Positions 8,090-50,909 are shown, numbered from the stretch's first letter. The stretch is DNA of 64,000 nt from an uncultured Chloroflexia bacterium (GCA_963814125.1 CAWFBR010000007.1:18506-82505); one strand, 5' to 3'. Made by a program: numbers and translations. Notes: generated by a model not told the origin, from the letters alone.

Positions 8090-8782
8090 ATGTCCGACGA
8101 TCGAATGCCCGACGACACAGAAGGACGACCCCTTCGGCACACCGGACCGGAGCCGAAGAGTCGCTGGACGGGCGCCGGCCGCCTCCGATCGACCGGCCGT
8201 GTTCCGCCCTTGCTGTCCGTTGCCCTCGTGGGTGCCGTAGCCGGGCTCGTCGCCGGTTTGGGGCTCGGGTACCGACTCGGCGCTGTCGCACCGCTGCCCG
8301 CGCCTACGCCTCTGCCGGCGGATCTCGAGGCGGATCGCGTCAGCGCAAGGCTCGAGCTTGCCTTCGAGTCGGCAGCGCCCGGTGGCTGGGCGGTCTGCAG
8401 CCTGGGCCGGGAGGTCGCGTGCCGCCCGCTCGTCGTCGGGCTTACGGATCCGCGCGTGCCTCCGTCCGAATACGGCCTCGGCTGGTACGGCAGAACCGAC
8501 CTGACCCGAGTGGCCGTTAGCCCGGCCCATCTGGTTCTGGCGGCCTCCATGGGCCAGGGCGCTGTCTCCGCCTGGCTGAACCCCATCGGGCCCGGCGATG
8601 CGTTCACGGGGACGATCGACCTGACCCCGGTCGACCCGGGCGGGCGCGGGACCTTCTACTTCGACCTCGGGACCCTTGGCCCCGGCCACTACGTGATCGA
8701 AACGGACCTCCTGGCCGTGCCCCAGCCAGGGGAGTCAGTGCATATGGTGCAGTCCAGCCTGGTCGGCTTCGTGGTGGGCTGA
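8090..8782 (+). CDS. Hypothetical membrane-anchored protein
   Basis: 230 aa ORF with one TM helix (LLSVALVGAVAGLVAGLGLG) and GC-rich third codon positions. No recognisable family. Confidence 0.4.
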   Translation: MSDDRMPDDTEGRPLRHTGPEPKSRWTGAGRLRSTGRVPPLLSVALVGAVAGLVAGLGLGYRLGAVAPLPAPTPLPADLEADRVSARLELAFESAAPGGWAVCSLGREVACRPLVVGLTDPRVPPSEYGLGWYGRTDLTRVAVSPAHLVLAASMGQGAVSAWLNPIGPGDAFTGTIDLTPVDPGGRGTFYFDLGTLGPGHYVIETDLLAVPQPGESVHMVQSSLVGFVVG

Positions 8783-8818
8783 GCAGCGACGGCAGCCAGA
8801 TCAGACCGAGTCGTCGCG

Positions 8819-9024
8819 CTAGTTCTTTGTGACCATGACCTGATTCGTCTGGGGCAACATGGCAATGCTGGACCCCAGCCGCGTACACCAGGCGAGGAGA
8901 TCCCGCGACCACTCCTCCTCCCAGTCGGGAGGCAGCCGGACCACGACCGTCTGCCCTGACCGGCGGTCCTTCAGGGCTTCTTCGATCGACTGACAGAGAG
9001 TGTCGTAGTTCGGAGACTTAGCCA
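8819..9024 (-). CDS. Small hypothetical protein
   Basis: GTG start preceded by GAGGAGG, about 68 aa (VAKSPNYDTLCQSIEEALKDRR...). Confidence 0.35.
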
Positions 9025-9218
9025 CTGTGTGCCCTCCTCGTTGGCCAAACAACCACCCGGGCGTAGTCTAGCGGGAGGCGCCCCTGGGCGGGCGGTCCTG
9101 CCGACCCGCGTAGGGTGGACGGGTCGCCGATCGTCCTCAGCCGATGAGCTCAGGCGGCCCCGCCGAGTTAGTGTTTGCGAAGAGCGGAGTCTGTGTAGCC
9201 CAAAGTGAGGTTCCCAAG

Positions 9219-9470
9219 ATGCTCTTCCTGGTGAAGCAGGTCCACACGCCGGAGCACTGCCCAAAGGATCAGGGTGGCACCAAGACGCTCTACGACGCCG
9301 AGGTGCCAGGAGTGAAGCTCGACCGGGTCCTCGGTGACTTCTCGCGCCACACTGTCTACTACCTTCTGGAAGCGGAGTGGCTGGAGGACGTCCAGACGTT
9401 CCTTGAGCCGGGGTGGGGCCTGTGCACCTCGGAGGTCACACCTCTGTCGGAGGAGCCGATCGGCGGATAG
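9219..9470 (+). CDS. Small DUF3303-like protein (hypothetical)
   Basis: Internal ATG after GTGAGG, giving MLFLVKQVHTPEHCPKDQGG... (83 aa). Resembles the 3014-3313 product. Confidence 0.45.
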   Translation: MLFLVKQVHTPEHCPKDQGGTKTLYDAEVPGVKLDRVLGDFSRHTVYYLLEAEWLEDVQTFLEPGWGLCTSEVTPLSEEPIGG

Positions 9471-9587
9471 GCCTGCCTATCATGTGCGCGTCCCCGACCT
9501 GGAGAGGCCCGCCGAGCCATACAACGGAATTCTGACAGCCGAGGTTCCGCGCCCTCCGGGCGTCGGCTGACACGAAGTGCTTCCCTG

Positions 9588-9872
9588 TCAGACATGCCTA
9601 TGCAAAGGGTCGGTGTCCCCCGCGGCCTCCGGTGCGTCTGGCTCTCGCGGCCGCTCCTCCCAGCCCATCTCCTCCGCCTCATGCTTGGCGAGGTTGAGGT
9701 GCACCACCTCGTGCTCGACATTGGCGATCGCGGACGCCGGGATATAGAGGGGGGCGGCGAGCATGCCTCTCGACGCGAGCACGTAGTTCTGGCCCACGGC
9801 ATGTACGGAACCGAGAGGGCGGCCGTCATTCCCGACGATGGCCCAACCAGCCTTCAGGTCCGTCATGCGCAT
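9588..9872 (-). CDS. PRC-barrel/DUF2171-like protein
   Basis: 94 aa: MRMTDLKAGWAIVGNDGRPLGSVHAVGQNYVL. Confidence 0.5.
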   Translation of the reverse strand: MRMTDLKAGWAIVGNDGRPLGSVHAVGQNYVLASRGMLAAPLYIPASAIANVEHEVVHLNLAKHEAEEMGWEERPREPDAPEAAGDTDPLHRHV

Positions 9873-10069
9873 TGGCTATCGACCTCCGTCGGGTTCAACA
9901 GTGTCTACTCTAGTTGAACCGCGGTGGCCCGTCGCCACGGACCCAAGCTGCTCGTGGCGACTCCAGATACGTGGAGACACGCCGACACCCTCAACGAGGG
10001 CCGAGCCAATCGCCGTGCTGCCGGTCCAGTCGCTGCTAGCGGTGCGGGGTACGAACGGTCGGAGTCAGC

Positions 10070-12883
10070 ATGAGTTCCCGTAATCAACGGCCGCGGCCGG
10101 AAGGCCCGGGCGCCGCTCGCCGGAACCGTGAGCGCGCGGCGACCGATGCGATCGAAGGGCCCCAGCCCGGCTCCGACAGGCTGCAGGAGGCCTTCGTCGC
10201 CGACATGGACGACGGCGTCGCCTTCCACAGCGCGATTCGGGACGAAACCGGGCGCATCGTCGACTTTCGGGTCGAGTACGTCAACGAGGCCTTCTGTCGG
10301 ATGGTCAGACTGGCGCACGACCGGCTCGTCGGACATCGGGTCCTCGAGCTGTTCCCGACCCAGCGGGCCAAGGGAATCTTCGACATGTGCGTGCAGGTCG
10401 CCGAGACAGGCCAACCCAGCACTCGGGACTCGCTGAGGGACCAGCAGGGCCTGGGCTGGACCGACCCCGATGGCCACGCTCCGAGTGTCGACATCAGGGT
10501 CAGCAAACTCGGCGATGGCTGCGCGGTGAGAGTTCGCGACACCACAGCCCGACAACGTGCCGAGGACGAGCTGTTCGCGTCGCAGGAGATGCTGCGGTCG
10601 GTCCTCGACACCTTCCCTCAGCGCGTGTTCTGGAAGGACGAGGATTTTATCTTTGTCGGCTGCAACGCCGCCTTCGCCCGGAACGTTCACCTGGCGGATC
10701 CGTCTGAGATCGTAGGCAAGACCGACTTCGACATCCACCCGGTCGCCGACGCCGAGCTGTATCGCGCCGATGACAGGGAGATCATGCGAACTGGCACGCC
10801 GAGGATCGAGTACGAAGAGCCGATGACCCGCGCGGACGGCACGGAAGGCTGGGCGAGGACGAGCAAAGTCCCCATCAGGGACAAGGACGGCCGGGTCGTC
10901 GGCCTCCTCGGGACCTACCAGGACATCACCGACCAGAAGCGAGCGGCGGAAGCGCTCCGGGAGAGCGAGCAATTCCTGGACAGCATCATCGAGAACATCC
11001 CGGTCATGGTTTTCGTGAAGGATGCCGAGACCTTCCGTTTCGTCCGCCTCAACAAGGCCGGGGAGAGGATGCTCGGCTCCACGCGGGAGCGCCTTGTCGA
11101 TCAAGACAGCTCGGGGCTGGTGCCGCCGGATGAGGACGAGCACTTCCTCTCGTTCGATCGGCTCGTCGCCACCACCGGCCAGGTTGTGGAGATCCCGGAG
11201 GAGACCATCACCACTCCACAGCAGGGCGTAATCGTCATGCACACTATCAAGGTCCCCATCTTCGGCGACGACGGCAAACCGCGGTACGTGCTGGGGATCT
11301 CGGAGGACATCACCGCTCGCAAAGCAGCCGAACAGGGGCGCCGTGAGAGCGAAGAACGCTACCGTCACATCATCGAGTCGATCACCAACTACATAGTCAG
11401 CGTTCGGATCGAGCACGGGGTACCGGTTGGCGTCAATCACGGACAGGGCTCCGTCGCGGTCACCGGCTACACGCCCGAAGAGCTGAACGCCGATCCCGAG
11501 CTTTGGGACAGCCTGGTGGTTGCAGAGGATCGCGAACTCGTTGAGGAGAGCATGCGGCGTGTCCTGACCGGCGTGCCGATCGCGCCGGTCGAGCATCGGC
11601 TTCGCCGTAAGGACGGAGTGGTTCGCTGGGTCCGCCAGACGTTCGTACTTCGTTTCGACGCGGACGGCAGTGTGACCTCCTACGACGGACTCATCCAGGA
11701 CATAACGGAACCACGCACCCTGCAGGGCCAGCTGCTCCAGGCCCAGAAGATGGAGGGGATCGGCCGCCTGGCCGGAGGCGTGGCCCACGACTTCAACAAT
11801 CTCCTCACGGCGATCCTGGGCTATGTCGAAATGTGCCGCCAGGACCTGCCGCCAGAACTGCCGACCGACCATCCTGCCCGGCTCGACCTCCAGGAAGTGG
11901 CCGGTGCCGGAGAGCGGGCCGCCGGCCTGACCAGGCAGCTGCTGGCATTCGCCAGCCGCCAGATCGTTGCGCCCGTGCGACTGGACCTCAGCGCGTCGGT
12001 GAGCGACTCGATGAAGATGCTCCAGCGGTTGGTTGGGGACGACATCGAAATCGAGACCGCTCTCGCGTCCGACTTGCGGATCGTTTTGGCGGACCCGGGC
12101 CAGATTCAGCAGCTGCTCGTGAACCTCACCGTCAACGCCCGCGACGCGATGCCGGGCGGCGGCCGTCTGCTGATCGAAGCCGCCAACGAGCTGATCGACG
12201 CGGGATCCGCCATTGCGCATTCCGGTGCGGTGCCGGGGCCGCATGTCCTCCTGACCGTGACCGACACAGGCGAAGGGATGACCGAGGAGGTCCGCTCTCG
12301 CCTGTTCGAACCGTTCTTCACGACCAAGGAACTGGGCAAAGGGACGGGACTTGGCCTGGCGACATGCCATGGAATCGTGAGGCAACTGTCAGGCCATATC
12401 GAGGTCTACTCGGAGCCGGGCCAAGGGACGATGTTCCGAATCTACCTGCCCAGCGTCGACGGCCCGGCCGATCGTCGAGCCGATACATCGTTGGTCCCTC
12501 CGGCCTCCAACGGCACCGAGAGCGTGCTCGTCGTCGAGGATGAGCCCCGGGTCCGCCGGCTGGCAGTGCTCGGCCTGCGCGCTCGCGGGTACAGCGTTCT
12601 CGAGGCGGCCAACGGAGCCGAGGCGATCCGGGTCGCGCTTGGAGTCGGCAACACCATCGATCTGGTCGTTAGCGACGTCATGATGCCCGGCATGAGCGGC
12701 CCCGAACTCGTCCGGGAACTCTCCGCAATCGCTCCGCGGGCGCGGGCTCTGCTGATGTCCGGCCATGCGGACGCCGCACTCCTGGATGAGGTACCCGATC
12801 TTCGCCAGGCCTTCCTTCCCAAGCCGTACACGCCGGAGCGACTCGCTCGCAAGGTCCGCGAAGTCCTGGACGCGCCGGCTTAG
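10070..12883 (+). CDS. Multi-PAS hybrid sensor histidine kinase (PAS x3-4, HisKA, HATPase_c, C-terminal receiver)
   Basis: 937 aa. H-box GGVAHDFNNLLTAILGY, G-boxes (TDTGEGM, GTGLGLA) and a receiver (VLVVEDEPRVR...DLVVSDVMMPGMSG...KPY). Confidence 0.9.
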   Translation: MSSRNQRPRPEGPGAARRNRERAATDAIEGPQPGSDRLQEAFVADMDDGVAFHSAIRDETGRIVDFRVEYVNEAFCRMVRLAHDRLVGHRVLELFPTQRAKGIFDMCVQVAETGQPSTRDSLRDQQGLGWTDPDGHAPSVDIRVSKLGDGCAVRVRDTTARQRAEDELFASQEMLRSVLDTFPQRVFWKDEDFIFVGCNAAFARNVHLADPSEIVGKTDFDIHPVADAELYRADDREIMRTGTPRIEYEEPMTRADGTEGWARTSKVPIRDKDGRVVGLLGTYQDITDQKRAAEALRESEQFLDSIIENIPVMVFVKDAETFRFVRLNKAGERMLGSTRERLVDQDSSGLVPPDEDEHFLSFDRLVATTGQVVEIPEETITTPQQGVIVMHTIKVPIFGDDGKPRYVLGISEDITARKAAEQGRRESEERYRHIIESITNYIVSVRIEHGVPVGVNHGQGSVAVTGYTPEELNADPELWDSLVVAEDRELVEESMRRVLTGVPIAPVEHRLRRKDGVVRWVRQTFVLRFDADGSVTSYDGLIQDITEPRTLQGQLLQAQKMEGIGRLAGGVAHDFNNLLTAILGYVEMCRQDLPPELPTDHPARLDLQEVAGAGERAAGLTRQLLAFASRQIVAPVRLDLSASVSDSMKMLQRLVGDDIEIETALASDLRIVLADPGQIQQLLVNLTVNARDAMPGGGRLLIEAANELIDAGSAIAHSGAVPGPHVLLTVTDTGEGMTEEVRSRLFEPFFTTKELGKGTGLGLATCHGIVRQLSGHIEVYSEPGQGTMFRIYLPSVDGPADRRADTSLVPPASNGTESVLVVEDEPRVRRLAVLGLRARGYSVLEAANGAEAIRVALGVGNTIDLVVSDVMMPGMSGPELVRELSAIAPRARALLMSGHADAALLDEVPDLRQAFLPKPYTPERLARKVREVLDAPA

Positions 12884-24334: not shown

Positions 24335-25275
24335 CCGGTCAGACGGCGACTAACGCAAAGGCCCGGGCCAGATTCTCGCCTGGACGATACTTTGGAGAGC
24401 TGGGGTTCGTCGGCTATGTGATCCGCCTGGCAATCCTGCTGGTCTTCGCCATCTACTTCGTGGTTCCGCTGGTGTGGCTGCTGTTCGCGACCACGAGAGA
24501 CCCAGCCAGCCTGTACGGCAACTGGTTCCCGCTCACATTCGGTTCGATCGATCGACTCGTGACGTCCTGGAACAACATCATTGGCTACCAGAACGGCGAG
24601 ATGCTCCTCTGGATGGGCAACTCCATCCGCTATGCCGGGCTATCGCTACTCGGCAGCCTCGCAATCTGCATCCCGGCCGGCTACGTCCTGGCAATCGGCC
24701 GCTTCCCGGGCCGCAGGCTGCTCCTCTGGCTGACCCTGATCACGATGCTGCTGCCCGTGTCGGCGATGGTGCTGCCGCTGTTCCTCGAGCTGAACCTGGC
24801 ACACCTCATCAACACGCAGTGGGCAGTCATTCTGCCGGCGATGTTCTTTCCCTTTGGCGTCTATCTGAGTTACGTGTACTACGGCTCCAGCCTCCCCGGA
24901 GAACTCGTCGACGCCGCCCGCGTCGACGGCGCCTCGGAACTGAGGGTCTTCTGGAACCTCGCGCTCCCGCTGGCCAGGCCGCTCCTCGGACTTCTGGCCT
25001 TCATCAGCTTCAACGCCAACTGGAACAACTTCTTCGGTCCCTACGTCATGCTGAACGACGACAAGCTGTACAACATGCCGGTTGGCTTGAACTCGGTCGT
25101 GGCCGCGACGTCGGCGCTCCGTCCAGGCTTCAATCCCACGCCCGGAGCAGTCTCCTTCGTACAAGCCGACGCTGCGATGGCCGCCATGTTCATGATCGTC
25201 CCGGTCGTCATCGTCTTCATGTTCTCGATGAAGTACGTGACGAGCGGTGCGTTCACCGGTGGCGTCAAGGGGTGA
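24331..25275 (+). CDS. Sugar ABC transporter permease (MalG/UgpE-like)
   Basis: ATGA overlap with the upstream permease. Start MTGQTATN. Confidence 0.85.
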   Translation: MTGQTATNAKARARFSPGRYFGELGFVGYVIRLAILLVFAIYFVVPLVWLLFATTRDPASLYGNWFPLTFGSIDRLVTSWNNIIGYQNGEMLLWMGNSIRYAGLSLLGSLAICIPAGYVLAIGRFPGRRLLLWLTLITMLLPVSAMVLPLFLELNLAHLINTQWAVILPAMFFPFGVYLSYVYYGSSLPGELVDAARVDGASELRVFWNLALPLARPLLGLLAFISFNANWNNFFGPYVMLNDDKLYNMPVGLNSVVAATSALRPGFNPTPGAVSFVQADAAMAAMFMIVPVVIVFMFSMKYVTSGAFTGGVKG

Positions 25276-25434
25276 CGGGTTTCTTCTGAGCTGAGTCGGG
25301 CAGGGCCGGTCACAGTGCAGTGTGGCCGGCCGGCCCGGCCGTTGGTCGTGATGTAGCCTCAGGGCCACGCTTGTCCCGTACACGACCCGACGCAGCTTCC
25401 TCCCGACGGTAGCCGACTTCCCGGAGCCTTATCG

Positions 25435-27810
25435 ATGCACTTGCCGAAGACACCAATCAACTACTTTCGCGGCGACCCCTGGGCCATCGTCGAGGAGGGT
25501 TTTGACCCCGCCTACCAGCGCATCTCCGAGTCGGTGTTCTCGGTCGCCAACGAGTTCATGGGCGTGCGCGGCTACTTTGAGGAGGGCTACAGCGGCGACC
25601 ATCTGCTCGGCAGCTACTTCAATCACCTGTACGAACTCATGGACATTCGCCACGACCAGTTGTTCAAGGGGTTCGTGACCAAGGGCGCGGCCATGGTCAA
25701 CGCCGTGGACTGGCTGTACACGCGCATCTGGGTAGACGGCGAGCAGCTCGACCTGGCGAAATCGGCTTTCTCCGGCTTTACGCGACGACTTGACATGCGC
25801 ACTGGCGTGCTCACGCGCGACTTCGTGTGGGCGACGGCCACCGGAAAGCATCTCCGGGTGACCTTGGCTCGGTTCACAGACATGCAGTCCACTCGCGTGG
25901 GCTGTCAACGCATTCTCCTCGAGCCCCTGGATTTCTCGGGAACAGTCGAGATCAGAGCCGGACTGGACTTCAACACGCACTACGAGATAGGTGCCGGCTG
26001 GGACCAGACCGGCGAAGAGAAGCGGCCCGGCCGGGATGAGATCATCAACTTCTGGCAGTGCCATCGGAAGAGCGCGGTGGAGGGCGGTTGGGCGATCGAG
26101 GCCGAAACGCTGCGAAGCGGTCACCAGCTGTTCTCAGGGTTTCGACTGCAGGCCGACCAGGCCATCGAAACCTCCCCTGTCGAGGACGTCAAGTTCATCG
26201 GCGTCGACTTCAAACTGAACGTCAAGCAGGGTCTGCAGACGAGGGTCGACAGGATTGCCGTCAACGATTGGGCCAAGACGCCGGACGTCGACGCGGTGTG
26301 GGGAAGAGGGCTCGAGCTGATGCGGCGTTTCGCCGGGGCGACCTACCGTAGCCTCCTGGCGGAGCATGTTGCCTTCTGGCAGCGAACCTGGAACGTGCTC
26401 GACGCAGACATCGAGGGCGACCCCGACGTGCTCCAGGGCCTGCGTTTCTCGAGTTTCCAGACGTACCAGTCGTACCACGGCGAGGACGCCGACCTCAACG
26501 CCCTGTGCAAGGGCATGACCGGCGAGGTCTACTTTGGGTGGGCGTTCTGGGACAGCGAAATCTACTCGCACCGCTTGATGATGTTTGTCAATCCGGAGGT
26601 CGCCAGGAATCTGCTCCTGTACCGTTACCATCGCCTACCTCAGGCGATGGAAAGGGCCCGGCAGCTCGATTGCGAAGGCGCCCGATTTCCGTTTGCCACG
26701 ATCACGGGGACCGAAGACTCCGGCACCTGGCAGCATGTAGACATCGAGATCCATTCCGATCTGGCGGTTGCCTACGCGATCTGGCATCACGACGTCATCC
26801 TGCAAGACAAGGAGTTCCTGTACCGGGAAGGCATCGAGATGCTGCTCCAGATATGCCGCTTCCTGGCGAGCTGGGGCGGATGGAGCCCATCGAAGGGCGA
26901 CTTCGGGTTCTACGGCGTCATGGGTCCCGACGAGTTCCACATGATGGTGAACCACAACTGCTACACGAACGTCCTCGGCAAGAAGGCTTTCGAGTTCACT
27001 CTCGCTGTCCTCGACGAGATGAAGGCCGCGGCGCCTGAACTCTATCGGGCGGCAGTGGCCCGGACGGAGCTTGCGCCGGAGGAGCCCAAGCGCTGGGCTG
27101 AGATGGCTCGGAAGATGCGCATCCCGAAGGACGAGCAGACGGGCGTTCTCGAGCAGCACGCAGGCTACTTCGATCTTCCCCACGTCGATCTCGAGCACTT
27201 CCCGCCGGACCAGATCCCGGTCTACAAGAACTGGGCCTACGTCAAGATCTTCCGCTACGACATGGTCAAACAGCCGGATGTGCTGAATCTCATGTACTTC
27301 TTCAGCCAGGATTACACGCTGGCGGAGAAGCAGGCCAACTACGATTTCTACGAGGCTCGGACGATACACGAGTCGTCCCTGTCGCCCTCACTGCACGCGA
27401 TTCTCGCGGTTGAGTTGGGGAAGCTCGACGACGCCTACACGTTCTTCGCCTACGGCGCTCGAATGGACCTGGACAACTACAACAGGAACACGGAGCAGGG
27501 ACTTCACGTCACATCTGCCGCCGGCGTGTGGGCCAGCATGATCTTCGGCTTCGGCGGAATGCGTACGGACGGCGACGTCCTCGCCCTGGCGCCCGCAATG
27601 CCGACCCAATGGCGGTCATACCGATTCCGGGTGCGCTATCGCGGCGCCCTGCTCGAAGTGCGTGTCAACGCCGACGAGGTTCACGTTCAGGCGATGGACG
27701 GCGGGCCGATCACGGTGAGATTGTATGGAAGTGATTGCGCGGTGGATTCTCTGGGAGTCGCCGTCGCGCTCAGGCAGCCCGGCGAGCAGCCGTTCCACAA
27801 AGTCGGATGA
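25435..27810 (+). CDS. Glycoside hydrolase family 65-like protein (hydrolase/phosphorylase)
   Basis: 791 aa. N-terminal ESVFSVANEFMGVRGYFEEGYSG is the hallmark of the GH65 N-domain, followed by an (alpha/alpha)6 catalytic region. Confidence 0.75.
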   Translation: MHLPKTPINYFRGDPWAIVEEGFDPAYQRISESVFSVANEFMGVRGYFEEGYSGDHLLGSYFNHLYELMDIRHDQLFKGFVTKGAAMVNAVDWLYTRIWVDGEQLDLAKSAFSGFTRRLDMRTGVLTRDFVWATATGKHLRVTLARFTDMQSTRVGCQRILLEPLDFSGTVEIRAGLDFNTHYEIGAGWDQTGEEKRPGRDEIINFWQCHRKSAVEGGWAIEAETLRSGHQLFSGFRLQADQAIETSPVEDVKFIGVDFKLNVKQGLQTRVDRIAVNDWAKTPDVDAVWGRGLELMRRFAGATYRSLLAEHVAFWQRTWNVLDADIEGDPDVLQGLRFSSFQTYQSYHGEDADLNALCKGMTGEVYFGWAFWDSEIYSHRLMMFVNPEVARNLLLYRYHRLPQAMERARQLDCEGARFPFATITGTEDSGTWQHVDIEIHSDLAVAYAIWHHDVILQDKEFLYREGIEMLLQICRFLASWGGWSPSKGDFGFYGVMGPDEFHMMVNHNCYTNVLGKKAFEFTLAVLDEMKAAAPELYRAAVARTELAPEEPKRWAEMARKMRIPKDEQTGVLEQHAGYFDLPHVDLEHFPPDQIPVYKNWAYVKIFRYDMVKQPDVLNLMYFFSQDYTLAEKQANYDFYEARTIHESSLSPSLHAILAVELGKLDDAYTFFAYGARMDLDNYNRNTEQGLHVTSAAGVWASMIFGFGGMRTDGDVLALAPAMPTQWRSYRFRVRYRGALLEVRVNADEVHVQAMDGGPITVRLYGSDCAVDSLGVAVALRQPGEQPFHKVG

Positions 27811-42883: not shown

Positions 42884-43574
42884 GCCTTGCCTCCGATTAG
42901 TCTCGCCGCGCGTCGCTGAACCTGACGCCGGACCTACCGCGCGGCGCCAGCTTGGGATGGCCGTCCAAAGTCGTCAACCGCTTGCCTCCGCCCCGCACGG
43001 CAGGTCGAGACAACCCGTTACGTTCGTTCGCTGGAAGGCCACATCCACGATGCTACAAAGGCGACCAGGCTTGTGAGCCACGCCGCGGCGGCGATCAGTT
43101 CGGCGTTCCGCTCCTGCTCTTCGACCCGCTGAAGGGAACGACCGACGAGGACGGTTCCGCCGCTCCAGGAGACCGTAACGGACGCGATCCGCACTCCGGC
43201 TCGAGGTTCCCACGTCACTGCGTTGGGCGATCCCTTCCTGGCCGAGTCGAGAACCCCGCTCGGAGGAAACGGCACGCTGCCGTCCAGAGCGGCGTTCGAG
43301 GCGAGGACCTGATCCCTTGAGTCGAAGACGGTCATGAAAGGGGCGAGACTCGTGGCCGCGTCCACGGTGGCGGGGCCTGCAATCGATGCAGGGCTGGCGC
43401 CGGCGTCGAGCCGCTGGCGGTCTGCCGACCCGGGCAGTCCGACGAGCGGGCGCTGGCGGAGCTGGCCGCCAGGAATACGGCGCGAGAGAAATACTCCTCG
43501 GTGAGGTCCTCGAGGACCGCGGGCCGCGGGAGGGTTCAGCCGCCATCACGGACGCAGAGGCTGGATTCGGGACC

Positions 43575-43599: not shown

Positions 43600-43731
43600 G
43601 CCGGGCGGCTCTTGTCACCCTCATGTCATCGAGGCGTCATCGGCCTGTCACCTGGGTTCGGGATCTTGTCGTGGGCCTTCTGATAGTTGCCCTCGGAGCG
43701 CGATCAAGGACGGCCGATATGGGAGGAAGCC

Positions 43732-45588
43732 ATGAATCCATCGCTGCTAACGCAAGCCCGGCGCCTGGGCTCGGGTCGCTCGCTGGTATTCTGCGCGCTG
43801 ACAGCGGCCCTGCTGGCGGTTGTCGCGAGCCCTCCGGCCCAGGGCTCGAGCGTCCGGGCCGCGAATGCCGATCCGACCTTCATCTACCAGACCAACTATG
43901 ACGGCGGCCCGTTCGACAACGGCGGGAACGATGAGGTCGTCGATAGCGCCGGAAACGCCTACATCCTGGAGGGGATCTACGACAGCATCGACAGGAACGA
44001 CGTGTTGGTGCTCAAGCTATCCCCGACCGGCGCGGTCCTCTTCACCACCTATCTGCGCGGCGGCGCCCTCGACTGGGGCACCGGCCTGGCCCTCGACGGT
44101 AGTGGCGGGCTGTGGGTGACCGGCTACACCGACTCGGCCGACTTCCCTGTGGTCAACGCGGCCCAGCCCGTGAAGGACGCGCGCCGATCCGGCTTCATCG
44201 CCCGCCTGTCCACCTCGAGCGGCGCGATCCTGTACAGCAGCTTCTTCGGCGGCAACGGCAATGACCAGATCAACGATCTGGTCATCGGGCCTAACGGCGA
44301 CATCTACTTGACCGGGCAGACCAATTCGACCGATCTCCCGGTCGTAAGCCCGTTGCAGACCAGCGCCGGCGATCGCGACGCCTTCGTGGTGCGCCTCTCG
44401 CCGGATGCCCGCACCGTCTTGTACGGCACCTACCTCGGCGGTTCCAACTACGACGAGGGCAACGGCATTGGCCTGGACGCGGCCGGCAACATCTACATCG
44501 CCGGCGACACCCAGGCGAATGATTTCCCCACCGTCAACGCCGTCCAGTCCAGCCGGGGCGGCGACTACGACGCGTGGGCGGCGCGGATCTCGGCCGATGG
44601 TTCGCATCTCGACTACAGCACCTACCTGGGAGGATCTCGCTACGAGTCCCCCTCCCGCATCAGCGTCGACGCGGCAGGCGACCTGACGCTGACCGGTTCC
44701 ACCAACTCGGCGAACTTCCCCACGACACCGGGCACGGCCCAGCCGGTGGCCACCGGCGACATCTGCGGCTCGTCCCCTTATCAGCACTACTGCTACGACG
44801 GCTTCGTGACTCGCCTTGCCCCGAACGGTGCGCTCGTCTACAGCACGTTCCTGGGAGGCAGCCTCGACAACCAGCTGAACAATCTGGCTGTCGACGGGGC
44901 CGGCAATGTCTATGTGATCGGCTACAGCAACTTCGCGGCGGCGCCGCCCGACTACCTGCCGACCTCGGACATCTACCTGGCCAGCCTTGACAACAGTGGC
45001 GACCTGCGGGCCAGCCTGATCTTCGACGCGGTCGTGCCCAACAGCTCGCACGGCCTTGCGCTCGGTCCGGGCGGCGACGTGTTCTTCACGGGCGTCCGAA
45101 ACCTGGCCGAGGACCTGTACGCGGCCCGACTGGTTCTCGGTAGCGGGCCGGCCCCCACACCAACGCCGACGCCCTTGCCGACCGCAACACCCACTCCCAC
45201 TCCCACCCCGACGCCGACGCCGATCGCGACGCCGACGCCCGAGGCCGCCAGCCTGCACGTGGCCGACCTGGACGGCAGCGCGACCGCCATAGGACGGCGC
45301 TTCTGGCGTGCCGGCGTCACCGTCCTGGTGCAAAACGCCGCCAATGACCCCGTCGCGAATGTCACGGTCACAGGTCGTTGGAGCCGCGGCACCTCGGGCA
45401 ACGTCCAGTGCGTCACCAACGCGAGCGGGACCTGCACGCTCTCGACCGGCACCATCAGCCAGCGAACGAGCAGCGTCACCCTCACGATCAGCAACCTGAC
45501 CGGCTCCGGATACACCTATGCCCCCGGAGCCAACACCGACCCCGACGGCGACAGCGACGGCACGACCATCGTCGTCTCGAGGCCCTGA
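43732..45588 (+). CDS. Secreted SBBP-repeat beta-propeller protein with PT-rich linker and C-terminal beta domain
   Basis: RBS GGGAGGAAGCC-ATG and a signal peptide. Several SBBP-type repeats (GYTDSADFPVVNAAQP; GDTQANDFPTVNAVQS; GSTNSANFPTTPG). Linker PTPTPTPLPTATPTPTPTPTPTPIATPTP. Confidence 0.8.
   Translation: MNPSLLTQARRLGSGRSLVFCALTAALLAVVASPPAQGSSVRAANADPTFIYQTNYDGGPFDNGGNDEVVDSAGNAYILEGIYDSIDRNDVLVLKLSPTGAVLFTTYLRGGALDWGTGLALDGSGGLWVTGYTDSADFPVVNAAQPVKDARRSGFIARLSTSSGAILYSSFFGGNGNDQINDLVIGPNGDIYLTGQTNSTDLPVVSPLQTSAGDRDAFVVRLSPDARTVLYGTYLGGSNYDEGNGIGLDAAGNIYIAGDTQANDFPTVNAVQSSRGGDYDAWAARISADGSHLDYSTYLGGSRYESPSRISVDAAGDLTLTGSTNSANFPTTPGTAQPVATGDICGSSPYQHYCYDGFVTRLAPNGALVYSTFLGGSLDNQLNNLAVDGAGNVYVIGYSNFAAAPPDYLPTSDIYLASLDNSGDLRASLIFDAVVPNSSHGLALGPGGDVFFTGVRNLAEDLYAARLVLGSGPAPTPTPTPLPTATPTPTPTPTPTPIATPTPEAASLHVADLDGSATAIGRRFWRAGVTVLVQNAANDPVANVTVTGRWSRGTSGNVQCVTNASGTCTLSTGTISQRTSSVTLTISNLTGSGYTYAPGANTDPDGDSDGTTIVVSRP
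45159..45243. repeat. Imperfect tandem ACNCCNACNCCG coding repeat (PT linker)
   Basis: Read directly in the sequence. Confidence 0.6.
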
Positions 45589-45677
45589 CACAGCCACTCG
45601 GCCAAGCGAGCCGTGATACGTCAACGCCCAGCCTCAGGGCCACCGGCCTCGAGGCTGGGCGATCGTCGGCCGAGACG

Positions 45678-46400
45678 TCACCGCGCGGCGACCGGCAACG
45701 CATCGAGGAGGGCCGCCAGCTCGACGGGCTTCGTGAACATCGGCCAGTGCCCGGTATCGATCTCCGTGTACTCCCACCCGGGAGTCTCGGGCGTAATCGG
45801 CGACCAGGCGTCCGCCGCGGCGCGGATGTAGGTACGGTCGATCGTCTCCGCGGCAGGATTTCCGAGCGACATGCGTTCCCGATAGGTTCCGATTGGATGT
45901 GGCGTTCCGCGCGTGGCCAGAACCTCGAACAGCGCGCCGTCGACGCCGTGCGCTCCGTAATAGAGATCGAGCTCCGCCCGCCCGATAACCGGCAGTCGGA
46001 ACGGATCACCCGCAGCGGCCGCGCTGGCCTCCATCCCGGCCTTCGCCTCAGGACCAATCACATCGAAGAGCGACAGGCCATCGGGCAGCACGACGCCGGC
46101 CACGTACACGAGGCGTGCGACTCGGTCTGGGATTCGGTCGGCGACTCCGGTGATCACGGCTCCCGCGTACGAGTGGCCGACGAGGATCACGTCACGGAGG
46201 TCGTCCTTCTCAAACAAGGAGACGACGTCGTCCACGTGAGTCGTCAGGTTCGTCTCCGGCGTCCCTTCGCTTGCGCGCTCCGCCAGGCCGCTGAGCGTCA
46301 CCGGGCGAACTTCATGCCCGCGACGACGAAGGTCGGCGGCGGTGGCCTCCCACGCCCAGGCACCGAGCCAGGCCCCGGGGATGAGGACGAATGTGCTCAC
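45678..46400 (-). CDS. Alpha/beta hydrolase (esterase/lipase fold)
   Basis: GTG start after GGAGAC. Nucleophile elbow GHSYAG and a C-terminal His. Confidence 0.8.
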   Translation of the reverse strand: MSTFVLIPGAWLGAWAWEATAADLRRRGHEVRPVTLSGLAERASEGTPETNLTTHVDDVVSLFEKDDLRDVILVGHSYAGAVITGVADRIPDRVARLVYVAGVVLPDGLSLFDVIGPEAKAGMEASAAAAGDPFRLPVIGRAELDLYYGAHGVDGALFEVLATRGTPHPIGTYRERMSLGNPAAETIDRTYIRAAADAWSPITPETPGWEYTEIDTGHWPMFTKPVELAALLDALPVAAR

Positions 46401-46460
46401 GGTTGTCTCCTTTCGATAGATGTGTCCGGTGATCGCGCTTTGTCTCCCACAATGCCACTG

Positions 46461-46485
46461 AATGAGGGCCGATAGTGTCCTCATT
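46461..46485. promoter_or_regulatory. Inverted repeat AATGAGG-N11-CCTCATT upstream of the WYL regulator gene; putative autoregulatory operator
   Basis: Perfect 7-bp arms, about 20 bp upstream of the preferred start at 46504. Confidence 0.45.
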
Positions 46486-46503
46486 CTCGGTATCCTTCTG
46501 GAC

Positions 46504-47454
46504 ATGGCCGCTACCCTTCGCCTCTTTGCACTCCTCGACGTGCTTCAGCGCGGCGGCTGGGTCTCCGGACCCGAATTAGCGAGGCGACTCGAGGTCGACG
46601 CGCGGATGCTGCGCCGCGACCTGGTCCGTCTCCAGGAGATCGGCATCCCAATCGAGTCGGAGCGCGGCCGGCATGGCGGTTACCGCCTCCGGCCCGGCTA
46701 CCGCCTGCCACCGCTCATGCTCACCGACGACGAGGCGGTCGCGGTCATCCTGGCGCTGAAGTCCGCCCGCGAACTTGGGTTCGCGACGGCTGCCCCTGCC
46801 ATCGAGACCGCAAGCGCGAAGATCCATCGTGTCCTACCAGTGGCGTTGCGCACGCGCGTGCAAACGCTCGAGGAAGCGTTGGGGCTCGCGGCACGAGCAT
46901 CCGCAGGCGGAGGGGCACAGGGCGGCGTGCTCCTGGAGCTCGCAGAGGGGATCCGGCGACAGCGTCGAGCGGTGGTCAGGTACGCCTCGCCGGGCCGCGA
47001 GCCTCGCGAGCGGAAGGTAGACCCCTATGGACTGGCGGTCATAAGCGGACGCTGGTACCTGGCGGCGCTGGACCACGGCAGCGCGGAGATTCGGACCTTC
47101 CGCGTCGACCGCATCCTCAGCGCGAAGCTGGGGCCGGAGCCCGCCGTCGTACCACCCGAGTTCGACGCCGTGGCGTTCGTCTCCCGCTCACTCGCGCGCG
47201 TGCCCTGGCGATGGGAGATCGAGCTGGTCGCCGACGCGAGCATGGACCAGGTTCGAAGGGACATCCCGGCCACGGTCGCGGAGATCGAAGAGCGACCCGA
47301 CGGCGTGCTCGTGCGTGTCCGCGCCGAGGATCTGTCGGGTGCCGCTCGGATGCTGGCAGCCGTGTCGTGGACCTTCGTCATCCGCAAGCCGGCCAAGCTA
47401 CGCACCGCGCTTCGAGAGCACGCCCAGGCGCTTCTCCAGACCTCGATCCGGTAG
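46504..47454 (+). CDS. WYL-domain transcriptional regulator (wHTH-WYL-WCX; BrxR/CapW/PafBC-like)
   Basis: N-terminal wHTH (LRLFALLDVLQRGGWVSGPELARRLEVDARMLRRDLVRLQEIGIPI), a WYL core (DPYGLAVISGRWYLAALDH) and a C-terminal extension. The track ORF starts at 46462. Confidence 0.8.
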   Translation: MAATLRLFALLDVLQRGGWVSGPELARRLEVDARMLRRDLVRLQEIGIPIESERGRHGGYRLRPGYRLPPLMLTDDEAVAVILALKSARELGFATAAPAIETASAKIHRVLPVALRTRVQTLEEALGLAARASAGGGAQGGVLLELAEGIRRQRRAVVRYASPGREPRERKVDPYGLAVISGRWYLAALDHGSAEIRTFRVDRILSAKLGPEPAVVPPEFDAVAFVSRSLARVPWRWEIELVADASMDQVRRDIPATVAEIEERPDGVLVRVRAEDLSGAARMLAAVSWTFVIRKPAKLRTALREHAQALLQTSIR

Positions 47455-47573
47455 TACGGCTGGAGGAGGCCGATCCCGAATCGCCGAAAAGCGGAGGCAC
47501 CCTCCTGATAACATCGCCCGATCGTCATGCGGGCAGAGCCACCCCAATCCATCGACTTCACACGAGGGGCAGC

Positions 47574-48734
47574 GTGAACGACGCAACAACCGCAGAGCAG
47601 GCGCGCGAGTACGCGCAGTACTGGGCCTCTCAAGTAACAGTGCTTACCGGCGCAGAACAGGCAGAAGCCCGCCGCTCGGCCGATTACTGGGCCGCACAGG
47701 CCGCACGACTGTCGGCGCCGCCGCCGGTACGGCGCAAGCTATTCACGATCCCCGTAATCATCACCCTCATTCTTGTTCCGATCCTCGTCGCCGGCACGAT
47801 CGCCACCGAGATAAGCTTGTACTCGCAGCGGGCAGCGGAGGTGCAGGAGAGTCGCGGACCCGGAGCAGAGAAGATCGCCACACTCTGGCTCGACGCTGTG
47901 ATCGCGCGTGACAGCAAGACGGCGAAGTTGTACAGCCTCGACAACTTCAGCGTCTACGGATCTGCGGACAAGGCAGACCTGAGCGGGGTGATCGTCGGCA
48001 CCCCGGAGGCGGCCAAGTCGATAGACCTCGGCGTCAGCTATTCGATTGAAGATGTGCTTTACGGCGACTGGCAGGGTGAGGCAATTGAGCCCGAGGCGAC
48101 AATCGCCGTGGTTGTCGTGCGGCTCACCTACTCGGCAACAGCGGAAGGAAATTCGGTCAAAGCGTCCGGTATCCAATCCGTCTCGCTCAAGCGAGACCAT
48201 TTCGACGCAAGGACCGGCGAAAACGTCGGCTCCGTGCCCGGTGGCTCCACCGTTCTGGGCCCCTGGAAAGTGCAGAGCATCGGCGGCACGGTTGAAGCGT
48301 CCGGCGACTTGAAGTACGACGGCGAGTACAGCACCTCGACCTACGCCGCGTCACCGCTGCCGGCAAAGTTCGCGCCTTGCACGAGCCCCAGCAGCATTAT
48401 GGACGACATGGCCGATACGGCGGTGAAAGACGGCACTCTCCCGGCGTGGTGCGCTGCCGGCTACACAAAGTTCAAGAATTACGACAGCGGTGTCACCACG
48501 ATCTTGCGGGACAACCTGGTGCCCTTTGACCGGGTTCCGCCCCACGACATCGTTGGGTTGGCACGTTGGAGGCCACAGTCGGGATTTGGCGGGCCTCCCC
48601 TCGCTGAACTCTCAACCACCCTGCTCAATCGAGAGTTCGTCTTCACCATGATTCTCGTCGACAGCAAGAACTGGCTTGACCCTAAATCCGCCGAATACCG
48701 GATAGTCAGCATCACCGAGAGGATCACTAAGTGA
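47574..48734 (+). CDS. Hypothetical single-pass membrane-anchored protein with large extracytoplasmic beta-rich domain
   Basis: GTG start after GAGGGG. Cytoplasmic N-terminal helix-rich 45 aa, a TM helix (LFTIPVIITLILVPILVAGTIATEI), then a roughly 310-aa domain. GC is lower than the flanks. Confidence 0.6.
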   Translation: MNDATTAEQAREYAQYWASQVTVLTGAEQAEARRSADYWAAQAARLSAPPPVRRKLFTIPVIITLILVPILVAGTIATEISLYSQRAAEVQESRGPGAEKIATLWLDAVIARDSKTAKLYSLDNFSVYGSADKADLSGVIVGTPEAAKSIDLGVSYSIEDVLYGDWQGEAIEPEATIAVVVVRLTYSATAEGNSVKASGIQSVSLKRDHFDARTGENVGSVPGGSTVLGPWKVQSIGGTVEASGDLKYDGEYSTSTYAASPLPAKFAPCTSPSSIMDDMADTAVKDGTLPAWCAAGYTKFKNYDSGVTTILRDNLVPFDRVPPHDIVGLARWRPQSGFGGPPLAELSTTLLNREFVFTMILVDSKNWLDPKSAEYRIVSITERITK

Positions 48735-50083
48735 CCGCGATGCCGCCCAACGCCTCCAAGCCCAAAGGCATCGGACCCGGGTGCCTGATTGGAACCATCT
48801 CCGGCGCCGGCCTCTTCATCGTCCTCATTTCGTTGTTGGTATTCACGGTCTCGCTACCGCGAAATATCGACTTCAATGCCACCCCGGCTTGGGCAGCTAA
48901 CGGGGAAGACCAGAGCAGCTACGCCACCCAGGACCTCTATGTGGCCCTGAACGCGTCGCTGTCGCACGGCGATCGTGACGCGTTCATGGAGCACGTGGGT
49001 GGGGATGCCATCGAGACCATGACCCTCTTCTTCGACAACATGGATGCGCTCGGCTGGTCCAAGGGCGCAATCAGCACCAACGATTTCGATAGTCTTCTGA
49101 GCACGCCAGAAACCACCATCACGGTGAAGTCGATCCTCGGCGTCGATGCGGGATTTACCGCATCCGCCCCGCGAGGTAGCGGCGGCAGAGATGCGGGCCT
49201 CATTTTCATTCAAGGCTACGTCTACGACGTTCAGATCGGCATGGAGGGTGGCCACGCCGTCATCACCGGCATCGCTGCAAGCAACACCACGCTGCCGTGG
49301 CTTGAACAAGAACTCTACGTGACCAAAACAGCCCATGTCGTCGCTGCCGGCTACCCGGCGGAGAAGGCAATCGTCGATCAAGTAGCGGCCAAGGCCGAGC
49401 CCGCCGCTGTGTGGGTGCTGGACAAACTCAACACGGAGAAGAGCCCGCTGCCCCTGGCAGGCTTCACCACCTTCGTTACTGACGACCCCGCCGTCTTCGC
49501 CAGTTGGTTCACTACGGATGTAACGAAAGATTGGAAGATGGACATCGCGGGAACAGCTTTCCCGACTCGTCGACCGGATGCCAATGAGTTTGTTGACCCG
49601 CTCATCGCGACTGGCTCAGAGACGGCGGCGAGCGTCGTCACTATTGGGCCGGGTGCCATGAATCAGCTCCCCGCCACCCTCGCACACGAATACGTACACG
49701 TGTCACAAATCGTGCAGGTTTCGAGTGGATTCGGTTCGCCGCCGCTCAACACAATCGAAGGGTGGGCGGTGTACATGGACACGCTCTACGTCAACGGCAA
49801 CAAGTACCCCTCTCACCACGTCGAGCTTGCCGCGTCTCTGGCTTACGCCGACCCCACTGGTGCGGCGCCAACCGACGACCAGCTGCACTCAGCTGACGCC
49901 TACTACTACTACCAACTTGCTGGAAGCCGCTTTGCGTATGCGGCAGCCAAAGGTTACGACGTGGAGAAGCTCGCCAATTTCTCGAAGTTGGTTGGGGTCG
50001 ATCCGATCAAGGCATCGACCGATCTCAACAACGGAAACACGCTGTCCGATGCCGGTTGGCTGGCTTGGGCGAAGGCCAACTAG
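48731..50083 (+). CDS. Hypothetical single-pass membrane-anchored protein with HExxH (HEYVH) motif; putative zinc metallopeptidase-like domain
   Basis: GTGA overlap with the upstream gene. TM helix (LIGTISGAGLFIVLISLLVFTVSL) and LAHEYVHVSQ in the C-terminal half. Lower GC (about 57-60%). Confidence 0.6.
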   Translation: MTAMPPNASKPKGIGPGCLIGTISGAGLFIVLISLLVFTVSLPRNIDFNATPAWAANGEDQSSYATQDLYVALNASLSHGDRDAFMEHVGGDAIETMTLFFDNMDALGWSKGAISTNDFDSLLSTPETTITVKSILGVDAGFTASAPRGSGGRDAGLIFIQGYVYDVQIGMEGGHAVITGIAASNTTLPWLEQELYVTKTAHVVAAGYPAEKAIVDQVAAKAEPAAVWVLDKLNTEKSPLPLAGFTTFVTDDPAVFASWFTTDVTKDWKMDIAGTAFPTRRPDANEFVDPLIATGSETAASVVTIGPGAMNQLPATLAHEYVHVSQIVQVSSGFGSPPLNTIEGWAVYMDTLYVNGNKYPSHHVELAASLAYADPTGAAPTDDQLHSADAYYYYQLAGSRFAYAAAKGYDVEKLANFSKLVGVDPIKASTDLNNGNTLSDAGWLAWAKAN

Positions 50084-50163
50084 TCGATTAGCGCGAGCCC
50101 CTGGCGCGGTTGGCGCCCTGCATTGCTCCCGGTGGACGCAGCTGAAGCAGAACGCTGACTCGG

Positions 50164-50478
50164 TCATGGGGTGAAGAGTTCCGCCGGCGAGAGCGGCGTA
50201 TCCGCGCCCAGGGCTCCCGTGATCAGGACGTCGCCGCCCGGCAGGAGCGTCGCGGTCTGCCCCCAGTGAGGGTTCAACGTCGACCCTGTCTGGCTGAACG
50301 AGCCGGTCAGCGGGTCATACAGCTCCGCCGAAGTCAGATAGCCCTGGCCTCCACCTCCGACGATCAGGACCTCGCCGTTCGCAAGCAAGGTCCCGGTGTG
50401 CCGGGTGCGAGGCCTTGTCTGGAAGGACTGGGAGTCGCACAGCCCTCGCCTTGACGTCAGCCTGCCATACTGGTACAT
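50164..50478 (-). pseudogene. Kelch-repeat protein fragment (gene remnant)
   Basis: 104 aa ORF with two Kelch-like blades (LANGEVLIVGGGGQGYLTSAELYDPLTGSF; LLPGGDVLITGA). Far too short for a propeller and lacks N- and C-terminal context. Confidence 0.4.
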
Positions 50479-50496
50479 TACTCAAGTAATGAACCA
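50471..50496. promoter_or_regulatory. 26-bp near-perfect palindrome TGGTACATTACTCA|AGTAATGAACCA, about 35 bp upstream of the GntR gene; putative YtrA-type operator
   Basis: 11/12 matching arms, read directly. Confidence 0.5.
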
Positions 50497-50531
50497 GCCA
50501 ACACGCCACGACAGAGCTCAGGGAGCCGACC

Positions 50532-50909
50532 GTGCTCGATGACGGAGCGCCGATCTTCTCCCAGGTCGCCGAGCGCCTGGCCGACGACATCGCCGAGGGA
50601 GCTCTCGCCGAGGGCGCGCGAGTGCCCTCGACCAACGAACTCGCGGCCTTCTATGGGATCAACCCCGCCACCGCGGCGAAGGGCATCAACGTGTTGATCG
50701 ACGACGGGCTGCTCGAGAAGCACCGTGGCGTCGGGATGTTCGTCGCCTCGGGCGCCCGCGAGCGCCTGCTCGACGCCCGCCGCCAACGCTTCGCCGAACG
50801 CTACGTCGAGCCGCTGGTCGCGGAGGCGAGCCGGCTCGGGATCGACGCCGACGCCCTGGTGGCGCTGATCGGAAAGTCGGGCCAGACCCGGGAAGGCAGC
50901 AAGCTATGA
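50532..50909 (+). CDS. GntR family transcriptional regulator (YtrA subfamily)
   Basis: PSTNELAAFYGINPATAAKGINVLIDDGLLEKHRGVGMFV. Confidence 0.8.
   Translation: MLDDGAPIFSQVAERLADDIAEGALAEGARVPSTNELAAFYGINPATAAKGINVLIDDGLLEKHRGVGMFVASGARERLLDARRQRFAERYVEPLVAEASRLGIDADALVALIGKSGQTREGSKL

Follow-up and report, generated by a model that had tools for sequence, protein, structure and literature searches.

We analyzed a 64,000-nucleotide stretch of DNA from an uncultured Chloroflexia bacterium (GCA_963814125.1 CAWFBR010000007.1:18506-82505), referred to here as the window, in which a gene for a WYL-domain transcription regulator is followed by two overlapping genes for membrane-anchored proteins, designated gene A and gene B. 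An initial annotation had proposed that the regulator is BrxR/CapW-like and controls the gene pair as a defence or stress module, and had offered a membrane protease with a partner as the fallback. Comparison with related loci favors the fallback, since gene B has a gluzincin fold with the full active-site set and its linkage to gene A is retained in relatives. We consider it likely that two unrelated modules were placed side by side by a rearrangement: a divergently transcribed WYL regulator and esterase (the divergon), and a bicistronic operon for an extracytoplasmic zinc peptidase with a stoichiometric membrane partner, which would act on envelope or secreted proteins or peptides.

Results

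Two blocks of homology meet at the WYL stop codon

A metagenome scan for relatives of the WYL protein yielded 80 loci, among which close orthologues are those with 81-87% identity and at least 500 base pairs (bp) of upstream sequence, and distant relatives are those with 45-52% identity. A divergent alpha/beta-hydrolase gene was present beside the WYL gene in 5/5 close orthologues, with a start-to-start gap of exactly 101 bp in all, and in 20 of the 54 distant relatives with enough upstream sequence, where the gap measures 35-85 bp. At the nucleotide level, the hydrolase-WYL block shows 83-88% identity in 8 metagenome contigs (L015-L022 and L067 compared). Homology to the WYL-orthologue contigs is confined to positions 45673-47461 of the window, which hold both genes and their spacer, and against the 8 contigs it stops at 47454-47464. 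The 3′ flanks of the close orthologues are unrelated to the window and to one another, and no synteny of other window genes with these contigs was found except for a segment of about 400 bp (window 43011-43413, 90% identity) that is shared with L017 alone. The divergon itself also seems to be located in shifting contexts, the available flanks being mutually unrelated.

The gene A-B pair has limits of its own. Its nearest relatives, in L096, L095 and L003, show 84-85% protein identity and 90% nucleotide identity, and nucleotide homology to them covers window positions 47457/47461 to 50094/50108 and nowhere else, starting at 47461 for L096 and at 47457 for L003, with L095 limited by the end of its contig. 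These alignment limits mean that the conserved block, which we call the cassette, takes in a 113-bp leader before gene A and extends 25 bp beyond the stop codon of gene B. The leader is about 90% identical in L096, L003 and the available part of L095, where the upstream genes differ. The left edge of the cassette and the right edge of the hydrolase-WYL block meet no more than 10 bp from the WYL stop codon.

Neither block accompanies the other in relatives. For 35 WYL loci, 1.5 kb or more of 3′ sequence was available, and gene A or gene B followed the WYL gene in none of them. Likewise, in 22 other loci that hold the pair or a gene B homologue (about 18 of which have upstream sequence), no WYL gene was detected nearby, as checked by tblastn for L001-L014 and in called-gene tables for L095-L102. 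Judging from these comparisons, the adjacency of the WYL gene and the cassette is a lineage-specific outcome of rearrangement or insertion. The coordinates of all features are given in Table 1.

Table 1. Features of the hydrolase-WYL block, the gene A-B cassette and their edges, in window coordinates
Feature	Position	Strand	Remarks
alpha/beta-hydrolase gene, 240 amino acids, SABP2/hydroxynitrile-lyase/methylesterase-like	45678..46400	-	Abhydrolase_6 3.6e-16; conserved divergent partner of the WYL gene
Inverted repeat AATGAGGGC-N7-GTCCTCATT, 7-nucleotide perfect arms, N11; probable WYL operator	46461..46485		Unique in the window; invariant in 7 orthologous regions
wHTH-WYL-WCX transcription regulator, 316 amino acids	46504..47454	+	HTH_11, WYL and WCX domains
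Junction of hydrolase-WYL block and gene A-B cassette	47455..47464		Ends and starts of nucleotide homology
Cassette leader, 113 bp; presumed to hold gene A's own promoter and ribosome-binding site	47461..47573	+	About 90% identity where upstream genes differ
Gene A, 386-amino-acid single-pass membrane protein; predicted helical cytoplasmic N-terminus, one transmembrane helix, extracytoplasmic domain	47574..48734	+	Linkage to gene B
Gene B, 450 amino acids, membrane-anchored; transmembrane helix 16-41, NTF2-like domain ~60-207, gluzincin (clan MA(E)) zinc-metallopeptidase domain ~209-450	48731..50083	+	Predicted domains
3′ end of cassette block, 25 bp past the gene B stop	50084..50108	+	Homology with L096 and L095 stops at 50108
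Kelch-repeat gene fragment, 104 amino acids; rearrangement scar at right edge of cassette	50164..50478	-	Kelch_6/Kelch_4 ~7e-6

Gene B encodes a membrane-anchored protein with a gluzincin fold

The HExxH motif pointed out in the initial annotation is present in gene B and conserved. LAHEYVHV occupies residues 317-324, and in an alignment of 76 family members (20-84% identity) H319, E320 and H323 are each kept in 70-73 sequences. A glutamate 19 residues after H323 (E343, within EGWA) is conserved in 73 of the 76 and aligns with the glutamate of the M1 'EGFA' motif, and a tyrosine, Y394, follows E320 by 74 residues. Each of these five residues is at least 90% conserved, and all five are kept together in 68/76. 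Against the PDB, the family profile aligns with M1 peptidases exactly over HExxH-X19-E(G-x-A); 6a8z comes first (1.3e-6), then aminopeptidase N and ERAP2. The spacing of E320 and Y394 appears to resemble that of E242 and Y315 in lugdulysin, the residues mutated in entry 7bb9.

AlphaFold2 (AF2), run with the family alignment, produced a model of gene B with a predicted local distance difference test score (pLDDT) of 90.3 and a predicted template modeling score (pTM) of 0.85. In the model, residues 16-41 form a transmembrane (TM) helix and residues from about 60 to 207 an alpha+beta domain with the cone of an NTF2-like fold; the third part is a helix-rich domain with a thermolysin-like catalytic fold, where the motif lies in a helix at 307-329 and the glutamate in a helix at 339-354. 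An N-terminal hydrophobic anchor is found in at least 58 of the 76 family members. One hydrophobic segment per protein had been described for the pair, and this part of the topology stands, the segment lying near residue 13 in gene B and near residue 52 in gene A with basic residues before it in both; the N-in/C-out orientation given with it is a prediction, under which the gene B ectodomain probably faces the outside of the cell.

On the strength of the profile alignment and the structural model, gene B is assigned to the gluzincin-fold peptidases; its active-site set is intact, and zinc binding and catalysis are predicted. Searches of Pfam, NCBIfam and PADLOC gave no match (Pfam and PADLOC at E <= 0.1), and a look-up of the exact sequence found no existing record. 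A word-indexed search of 5.8 billion proteins recovered 8 homologues of gene B and 4 of gene A, and almost no new homologues when it was repeated with the 76-sequence gene B profile. An exhaustive profile search recovered 130 cluster representatives, which puts the family at about 130 clusters at 50% identity. This family of membrane-anchored gluzincins appears to be undescribed, within a well-known clan.

Several assignments to known families were rejected. Membership of peptidase family M1 found no Peptidase_M1 match at E <= 0.1; the sequence GPGAMNQ lies only 8 residues before HExxH and is not conserved, and the GxMEN exopeptidase motif expected about 30 residues upstream is not present in conserved form. 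M30, M9 and Peptidase_MA_2 (PF13485) gave no profile match to gene B, and just 1 of the 76 homologues touches Peptidase_MA_2, at 1.4e-3. The housekeeping identity that had been considered for the pair, an anti-sigma factor with a site-2 protease, does not fit either: gene B has one TM helix and a soluble gluzincin domain, it has no Peptidase_M50 match, and no sigma-factor gene occurs among the scanned neighbors.

The wider family includes some unusual members. Two proteins of about 1115 amino acids, P0091 and P0099, combine an N-terminal NACHT/STAND nucleoside triphosphatase (NTPase) with a gene B-like C-terminal domain from which H-E-H-E-Y is absent (GAQAS, EALVS); this suggests that the peptidase fold was recruited there as a non-catalytic STAND sensor module. 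Tandem gene B paralogues were seen in Actinotalea soli and Ruania (L006, 9764-11161 and 11367-12707; L014, ~8467-9642 and 9638-10795). Both copies in L006 have HExxH, and the second has an aspartate for the third-ligand glutamate (TIDGWA).

Gene A is linked to gene B across distant relatives

Gene A starts 119 bp past the WYL stop codon on the same strand. The GTGA overlap at 48731, from which translational coupling of the pair had been proposed, was confirmed, with GAGAGGA as a ribosome-binding site 6 nucleotides upstream, and the 4-bp overlap recurs in 7/7 other loci that hold both genes. The linkage extends to L097, L101 and L102, where gene B is only about 34-39% identical to that of the window. 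In each of these a gene A homologue lies directly upstream of the gene B homologue with a 4-bp overlap, as detected by hhalign in L097 (5.5e-43, 33% identity) and by hmmsearch in L101 (GCA_009789225.1; 2.9e-40) and L102 (5.6e-16). That the pairing and its overlap are kept down to about 30% identity marks the association as ancient and co-evolving, and argues for a physical or functional partnership.

Gene A matched nothing in Pfam, NCBIfam or PADLOC apart from DUF4440 at 0.022. The idea that it is a degenerate paralogue of gene B was rejected: BLASTP found only one 8-mer (E=0.12), and hhalign aligned the TM helices only, with probabilities of 6% and 21% for shallow and deeper profiles. The 8-mer, SGFGGPPL/SGFGSPPL, spans residues 336-343 of gene A (window 48579-48602) and residues 332-339 of gene B (window 49724-49747), at similar relative positions, and may be shared by chance. 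The gene A homologue of L101 (1721-3091) carries an N-terminal DUF2510 (GWYPDP-type) and is near a Ser/Thr kinase gene and a gene for a cadherin-like protein of more than 2000 amino acids. In L098 and L099, a solo gene B copy follows an ABC-2 transporter.

The regulator, a palindrome and a divergent hydrolase gene

The domains proposed for the regulator were confirmed: winged helix-turn-helix (wHTH; HTH_11 2.5e-12), WYL (1.2e-21) and WCX (3.6e-7), in 316 residues from the ATG where 317 had been counted. The repeat reported at its promoter, AATGAGG-N11-CCTCATT, is likewise perfect, with 0 mismatches, and is the sole such site in the window, two other operator-like matches having 3 mismatches each, which is chance level. 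What had been overlooked is the divergent hydrolase gene, which places the palindrome inside a 103-bp intergenic region shared by the two genes (46401-46503). The palindrome is unchanged in 7 aligned orthologous intergenic regions (83-86% overall identity) in which the neighboring positions vary. The hydrolase gene has a GTG start with AAGGAG before it, and the PDB relatives of its product are 6tj2 (1.5e-18), methylketone synthase and hydroxynitrile lyases. By their conserved order and spacing, the hydrolase gene, the palindrome and the WYL gene are one conserved unit, and we infer that the WYL protein, which is predicted to bind the palindrome, acts through it on its own gene and on the hydrolase gene. 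The regulator-esterase unit is of an ordinary, already known kind.

The BrxR/CapW-like identity first given to the regulator was not borne out. The solved structures nearest to it are PafBC (6sj9, 7.7e-15) and PafB/PafC in 7p5x (1e-14 and 2e-9); its remaining PDB matches are named only 'WYL domain-containing protein' or 'DeoR-family transcriptional regulator', and no chain named BrxR or CapW is among the matches at E <= 0.01. In PADLOC it matches only generic (CRISPR-associated) WYL models.

Genomic context and composition of the cassette

Relatives of the pair occupy varied positions. The L096 pair lies after an ABC transporter and before a 37-amino-acid AckA fragment, and the L001 pair (65% identity) lies between dnaX-recR and a 196-amino-acid open reading frame (ORF), which is followed by ackA-pta. 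The acetate-kinase fragment of L096 (12699-12812), set against the intact ackA-pta of L001 (11347-15130), looks like the scar of an older location beside ackA. A more distant clade is found in L005, L007-L012 and L014 (Pseudactinotalea, Actinotalea caeni, Ruania, an Actinomycetales metagenome-assembled genome and a metagenome contig), with a gene B homologue of about 480-610 amino acids that has a Pro/Gln-rich N-terminal tail. The order greA, gene B homologue, DUF4307 is seen in 7 of these loci, with a PIG-L (mca-like) gene next in 6, while the L014 contig breaks off past greA and the homologue. Identity is 57-80% for gene B, compared with 77-96% for GreA, and on this evidence the clade looks vertically inherited at a core locus. 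Other gene B homologues are found with nadD-rsfS and with etfBA-mnmA-aroE. Gene order in relatives and the taxa that carry gene B homologues point to Actinomycetota.

Gene A, gene B and the hydrolase gene each had 0 matches in PADLOC-DB 2.0 at E <= 0.1. The neighbors in the window encode a TetR regulator with an ABC exporter, RibD_C, a secreted SBBP beta-propeller protein, a GntR regulator with an ABC transporter, a PMT_2 glycosyltransferase and MarR. No defence genes were found near the pair in the window, where PADLOC matches of the neighbors are generic ABC-ATPase and HTH cross-matches only. There is no sign of a defence island, and the relatives of the pair lie among housekeeping genes. 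The secreted protein, encoded just upstream of the hydrolase gene (43687-45588), has about 620 amino acids and combines five SBBP beta-propeller repeats and a Pro/Thr-rich linker with an Ig-like domain at the C-terminus.

The lower guanine plus cytosine (GC) content noted for the pair held up in a windowed check, in which no other 2.5-kb stretch of the window is as low as the pair (0.606; mean 0.664, standard deviation 0.021). GC is 0.613 in gene A and 0.599 in gene B (0.75 and 0.74 at third codon positions, GC3), compared with a mean of 0.665 (GC3 0.843) in the other genes; the gene-based z-scores of -2.9 and -3.5 are inflated because the gene caller demanded a GC3 of at least 0.75. The second-lowest stretch (24800-27800, 0.612) contains a GH65 glycoside hydrolase gene in a sugar cluster with ABC permeases, an L-fucose isomerase and an FGGY kinase. 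In L096 the GC of the pair is low as well (0.60 vs 0.66), but in L001 it is host-like (0.675 vs 0.667).

At the right edge of the cassette, the Kelch remnant described 3′ of the pair was confirmed. It shares 46-51% identity with segments of longer Kelch ORFs from L016 and L019, the L019 relative having about 500 amino acids. The only sigma-70-like promoter match within 46300-50600 (TTGACG-17-TACATT, with TG) lies at 50451-50479, inside the 5′ end of the Kelch fragment and directed toward the GntR gene at 50532.

Discussion

In the arrangement we consider likely, a homodimeric wHTH-WYL-WCX regulator would bind the palindrome in the shared promoter region and, with its WYL domain sensing a ligand, would control its own gene and the divergent esterase-like hydrolase gene. 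The cassette (47461-50108) would be a self-contained bicistronic unit with its own leader. Gene B would be a type-II (N-in/C-out), outward-facing zinc metallopeptidase with an NTF2-like domain before the gluzincin domain. Gene A, made in fixed proportion by translational coupling, would most likely associate with the peptidase on the outer side of the membrane, forming a complex in which it regulates the enzyme or selects its substrates, and together they would most likely cleave or process envelope or secreted proteins or peptides.

A number of observations weigh against this proposal. AF2 gave gene A a pLDDT of 41 and no recognizable fold, and the gene A profile found no relatives in the PDB; it is the linkage that makes gene A the putative partner of gene B. 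Homologues of gene B occur without gene A in the Pseudactinotalea clade and in L098 and L099, so the family does not require gene A. In 8 of the 76 homologues the H/E/H/E/Y set is degenerate, and some family members are therefore not enzymes. Neither a sigma-70 promoter consensus nor a terminator or stable RNA fold rose above background in the WYL/gene A spacer, so read-through from the WYL promoter, and with it incidental co-regulation in this genome, may occur. Lastly, the low GC of the pair here and in L096, together with its shifting locations, fits an accessory or mobile set rather than a core housekeeping one.

This last point leads to a different account, in which the pair was acquired by recent transfer as an accessory cassette and serves a niche-specific role, such as the degradation of environmental or competitor proteins or peptides or interbacterial antagonism, instead of upkeep of the cell's own envelope. 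We regard it as unlikely, although it is compatible with the proposal above as far as the biochemistry is concerned. The horizontal acquisition suggested in the initial annotation is supported in part: the GC dip is real and the lowest in the window, the boundaries at 47461 and 50108 are sharp, and relatives 65-90% identical lie in three contexts. Gene fragments mark the edges, Kelch here and AckA in L096, and the word-indexed search found very few homologues. However, no integrase, transposase, transfer RNA (tRNA) or flanking repeats appear in the boundary alignments, with no dedicated repeat or tRNA search having been made; the distant clade at the greA-DUF4307 core locus, complete in 6 loci, looks vertically inherited; gene A and gene B co-evolve strongly down to about 30% identity in housekeeping surroundings; and the near-equal dip at the GH65 gene means that a drop in GC this large need not mark foreign DNA. 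In a bolder version, the pair is a new kind of mobile, self-contained two-gene membrane system for envelope surveillance or antagonism, captured here under the WYL regulator by read-through transcription and built on an undescribed gluzincin family that also supplied, in catalytically dead form, the C-terminal module of NACHT/STAND NTPases; this strikes us as very improbable.

It is also very doubtful that gene B is a non-catalytic pseudo-peptidase whose domain only binds a ligand, forming a membrane receptor or scaffold with gene A. The degenerate members, among them the two NACHT STAND NTPase fusions in which the domain is probably a sensor, lend themselves to this idea, but the window protein and 68 of its 76 homologues keep the five catalytic-type residues, and the spacing of HExxH-X19-E and of the tyrosine at +74 matches active gluzincins. 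Retention of all five at 20-84% identity argues for selection on catalysis. As for the reading from which the analysis started, a BrxR/CapW-type repressor controlling a horizontally acquired anti-phage or stress system, we find it scarcely credible. The wHTH-WYL-WCX architecture, the same-strand position 119 bp upstream with no recognizable terminator between, the low GC of the pair and the habit of BrxR/CapW-type regulators of sitting upstream of the systems they control (PMC9122601, PMC9122588) all speak for it. Yet the co-occurrence with WYL regulators and defence genes that such a module implies was seen in neither form: the pair is absent from all 35 WYL loci and the WYL gene from all 22 loci of the pair or gene B homologues, the homology blocks break right past the WYL stop, and the operator occurs only in the hydrolase/WYL region, with no second copy found before gene A. 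The regulator's conserved partner is the hydrolase, its nearest solved relatives are PafB/C, gene A and gene B are without PADLOC matches or nearby defence genes, and their relatives lie among housekeeping genes.

Our preferred reading, with two juxtaposed modules, carries a general point: a WYL regulator beside uncharacterized genes is by itself no evidence of a defence system, and comparative linkage can expose a rearrangement junction. It also delimits an actinobacterial family of about 130 clusters in which an NTF2-like domain stands between a TM anchor and an MA(E) catalytic domain; the family is without a Pfam or NCBIfam model and has one branch with an obligate-looking partner, gene A. 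This should help annotators and those who study cell-envelope proteolysis in Actinomycetota; it opens no new kind of biology.

The closest known systems to gene B are the gluzincins of clan MA(E), namely M30 lugdulysin and hyicolysin, the peptidase domain of M9 collagenase, M1 aminopeptidases and M4 thermolysin, with which gene B shares only 9-15% identity. Gene B differs from them in having no conserved GxMEN and no Pfam match to Peptidase_M1, M9, M30, M4 or Peptidase_MA_2, in its order of TM anchor, NTF2-like domain and catalytic domain, and in its conserved, translationally coupled membrane partner.

Among WYL regulators, PafBC, a mycobacterial DNA-damage activator and the best-scoring solved relative, has the same HTH-WYL-WCX layout. 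PafBC is, however, a heterodimer or a fusion of two chains located in the proteasome (pup) gene cluster, whereas the window has a single 316-amino-acid gene beside a hydrolase gene and no paired paralogue. CapW is released from DNA by single-stranded DNA as its ligand. The window's regulator resembles the BrxR/CapW type in its wHTH-WYL-WCX architecture and in the inverted repeat near its own promoter. Regulators of that type are established upstream of the defence systems they control (PMC9122601, PMC9122588), in contrast to the regulator studied here, which is not conserved upstream of any defence system, has a hydrolase as its conserved neighbor and is followed by different 3′ genes in every relative. 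SiwR, an actinobacterial WYL regulator from Mycobacterium smegmatis, binds a palindrome in an intergenic region of about 60 bp and controls the adjacent genes (PMC10693628). It shares with the window an HTH-WYL regulator, a palindrome (imperfect or perfect) in a short intergenic region beside its own gene, and adjacent genes for small enzymes instead of a defence system (PMC10693628). SiwR is an activator that responds to genotoxic stress and has DinB/YfiT-like targets, while the partner in the window is an alpha/beta-hydrolase; by layout, SiwR would be the best analogue of the window's WYL regulator.

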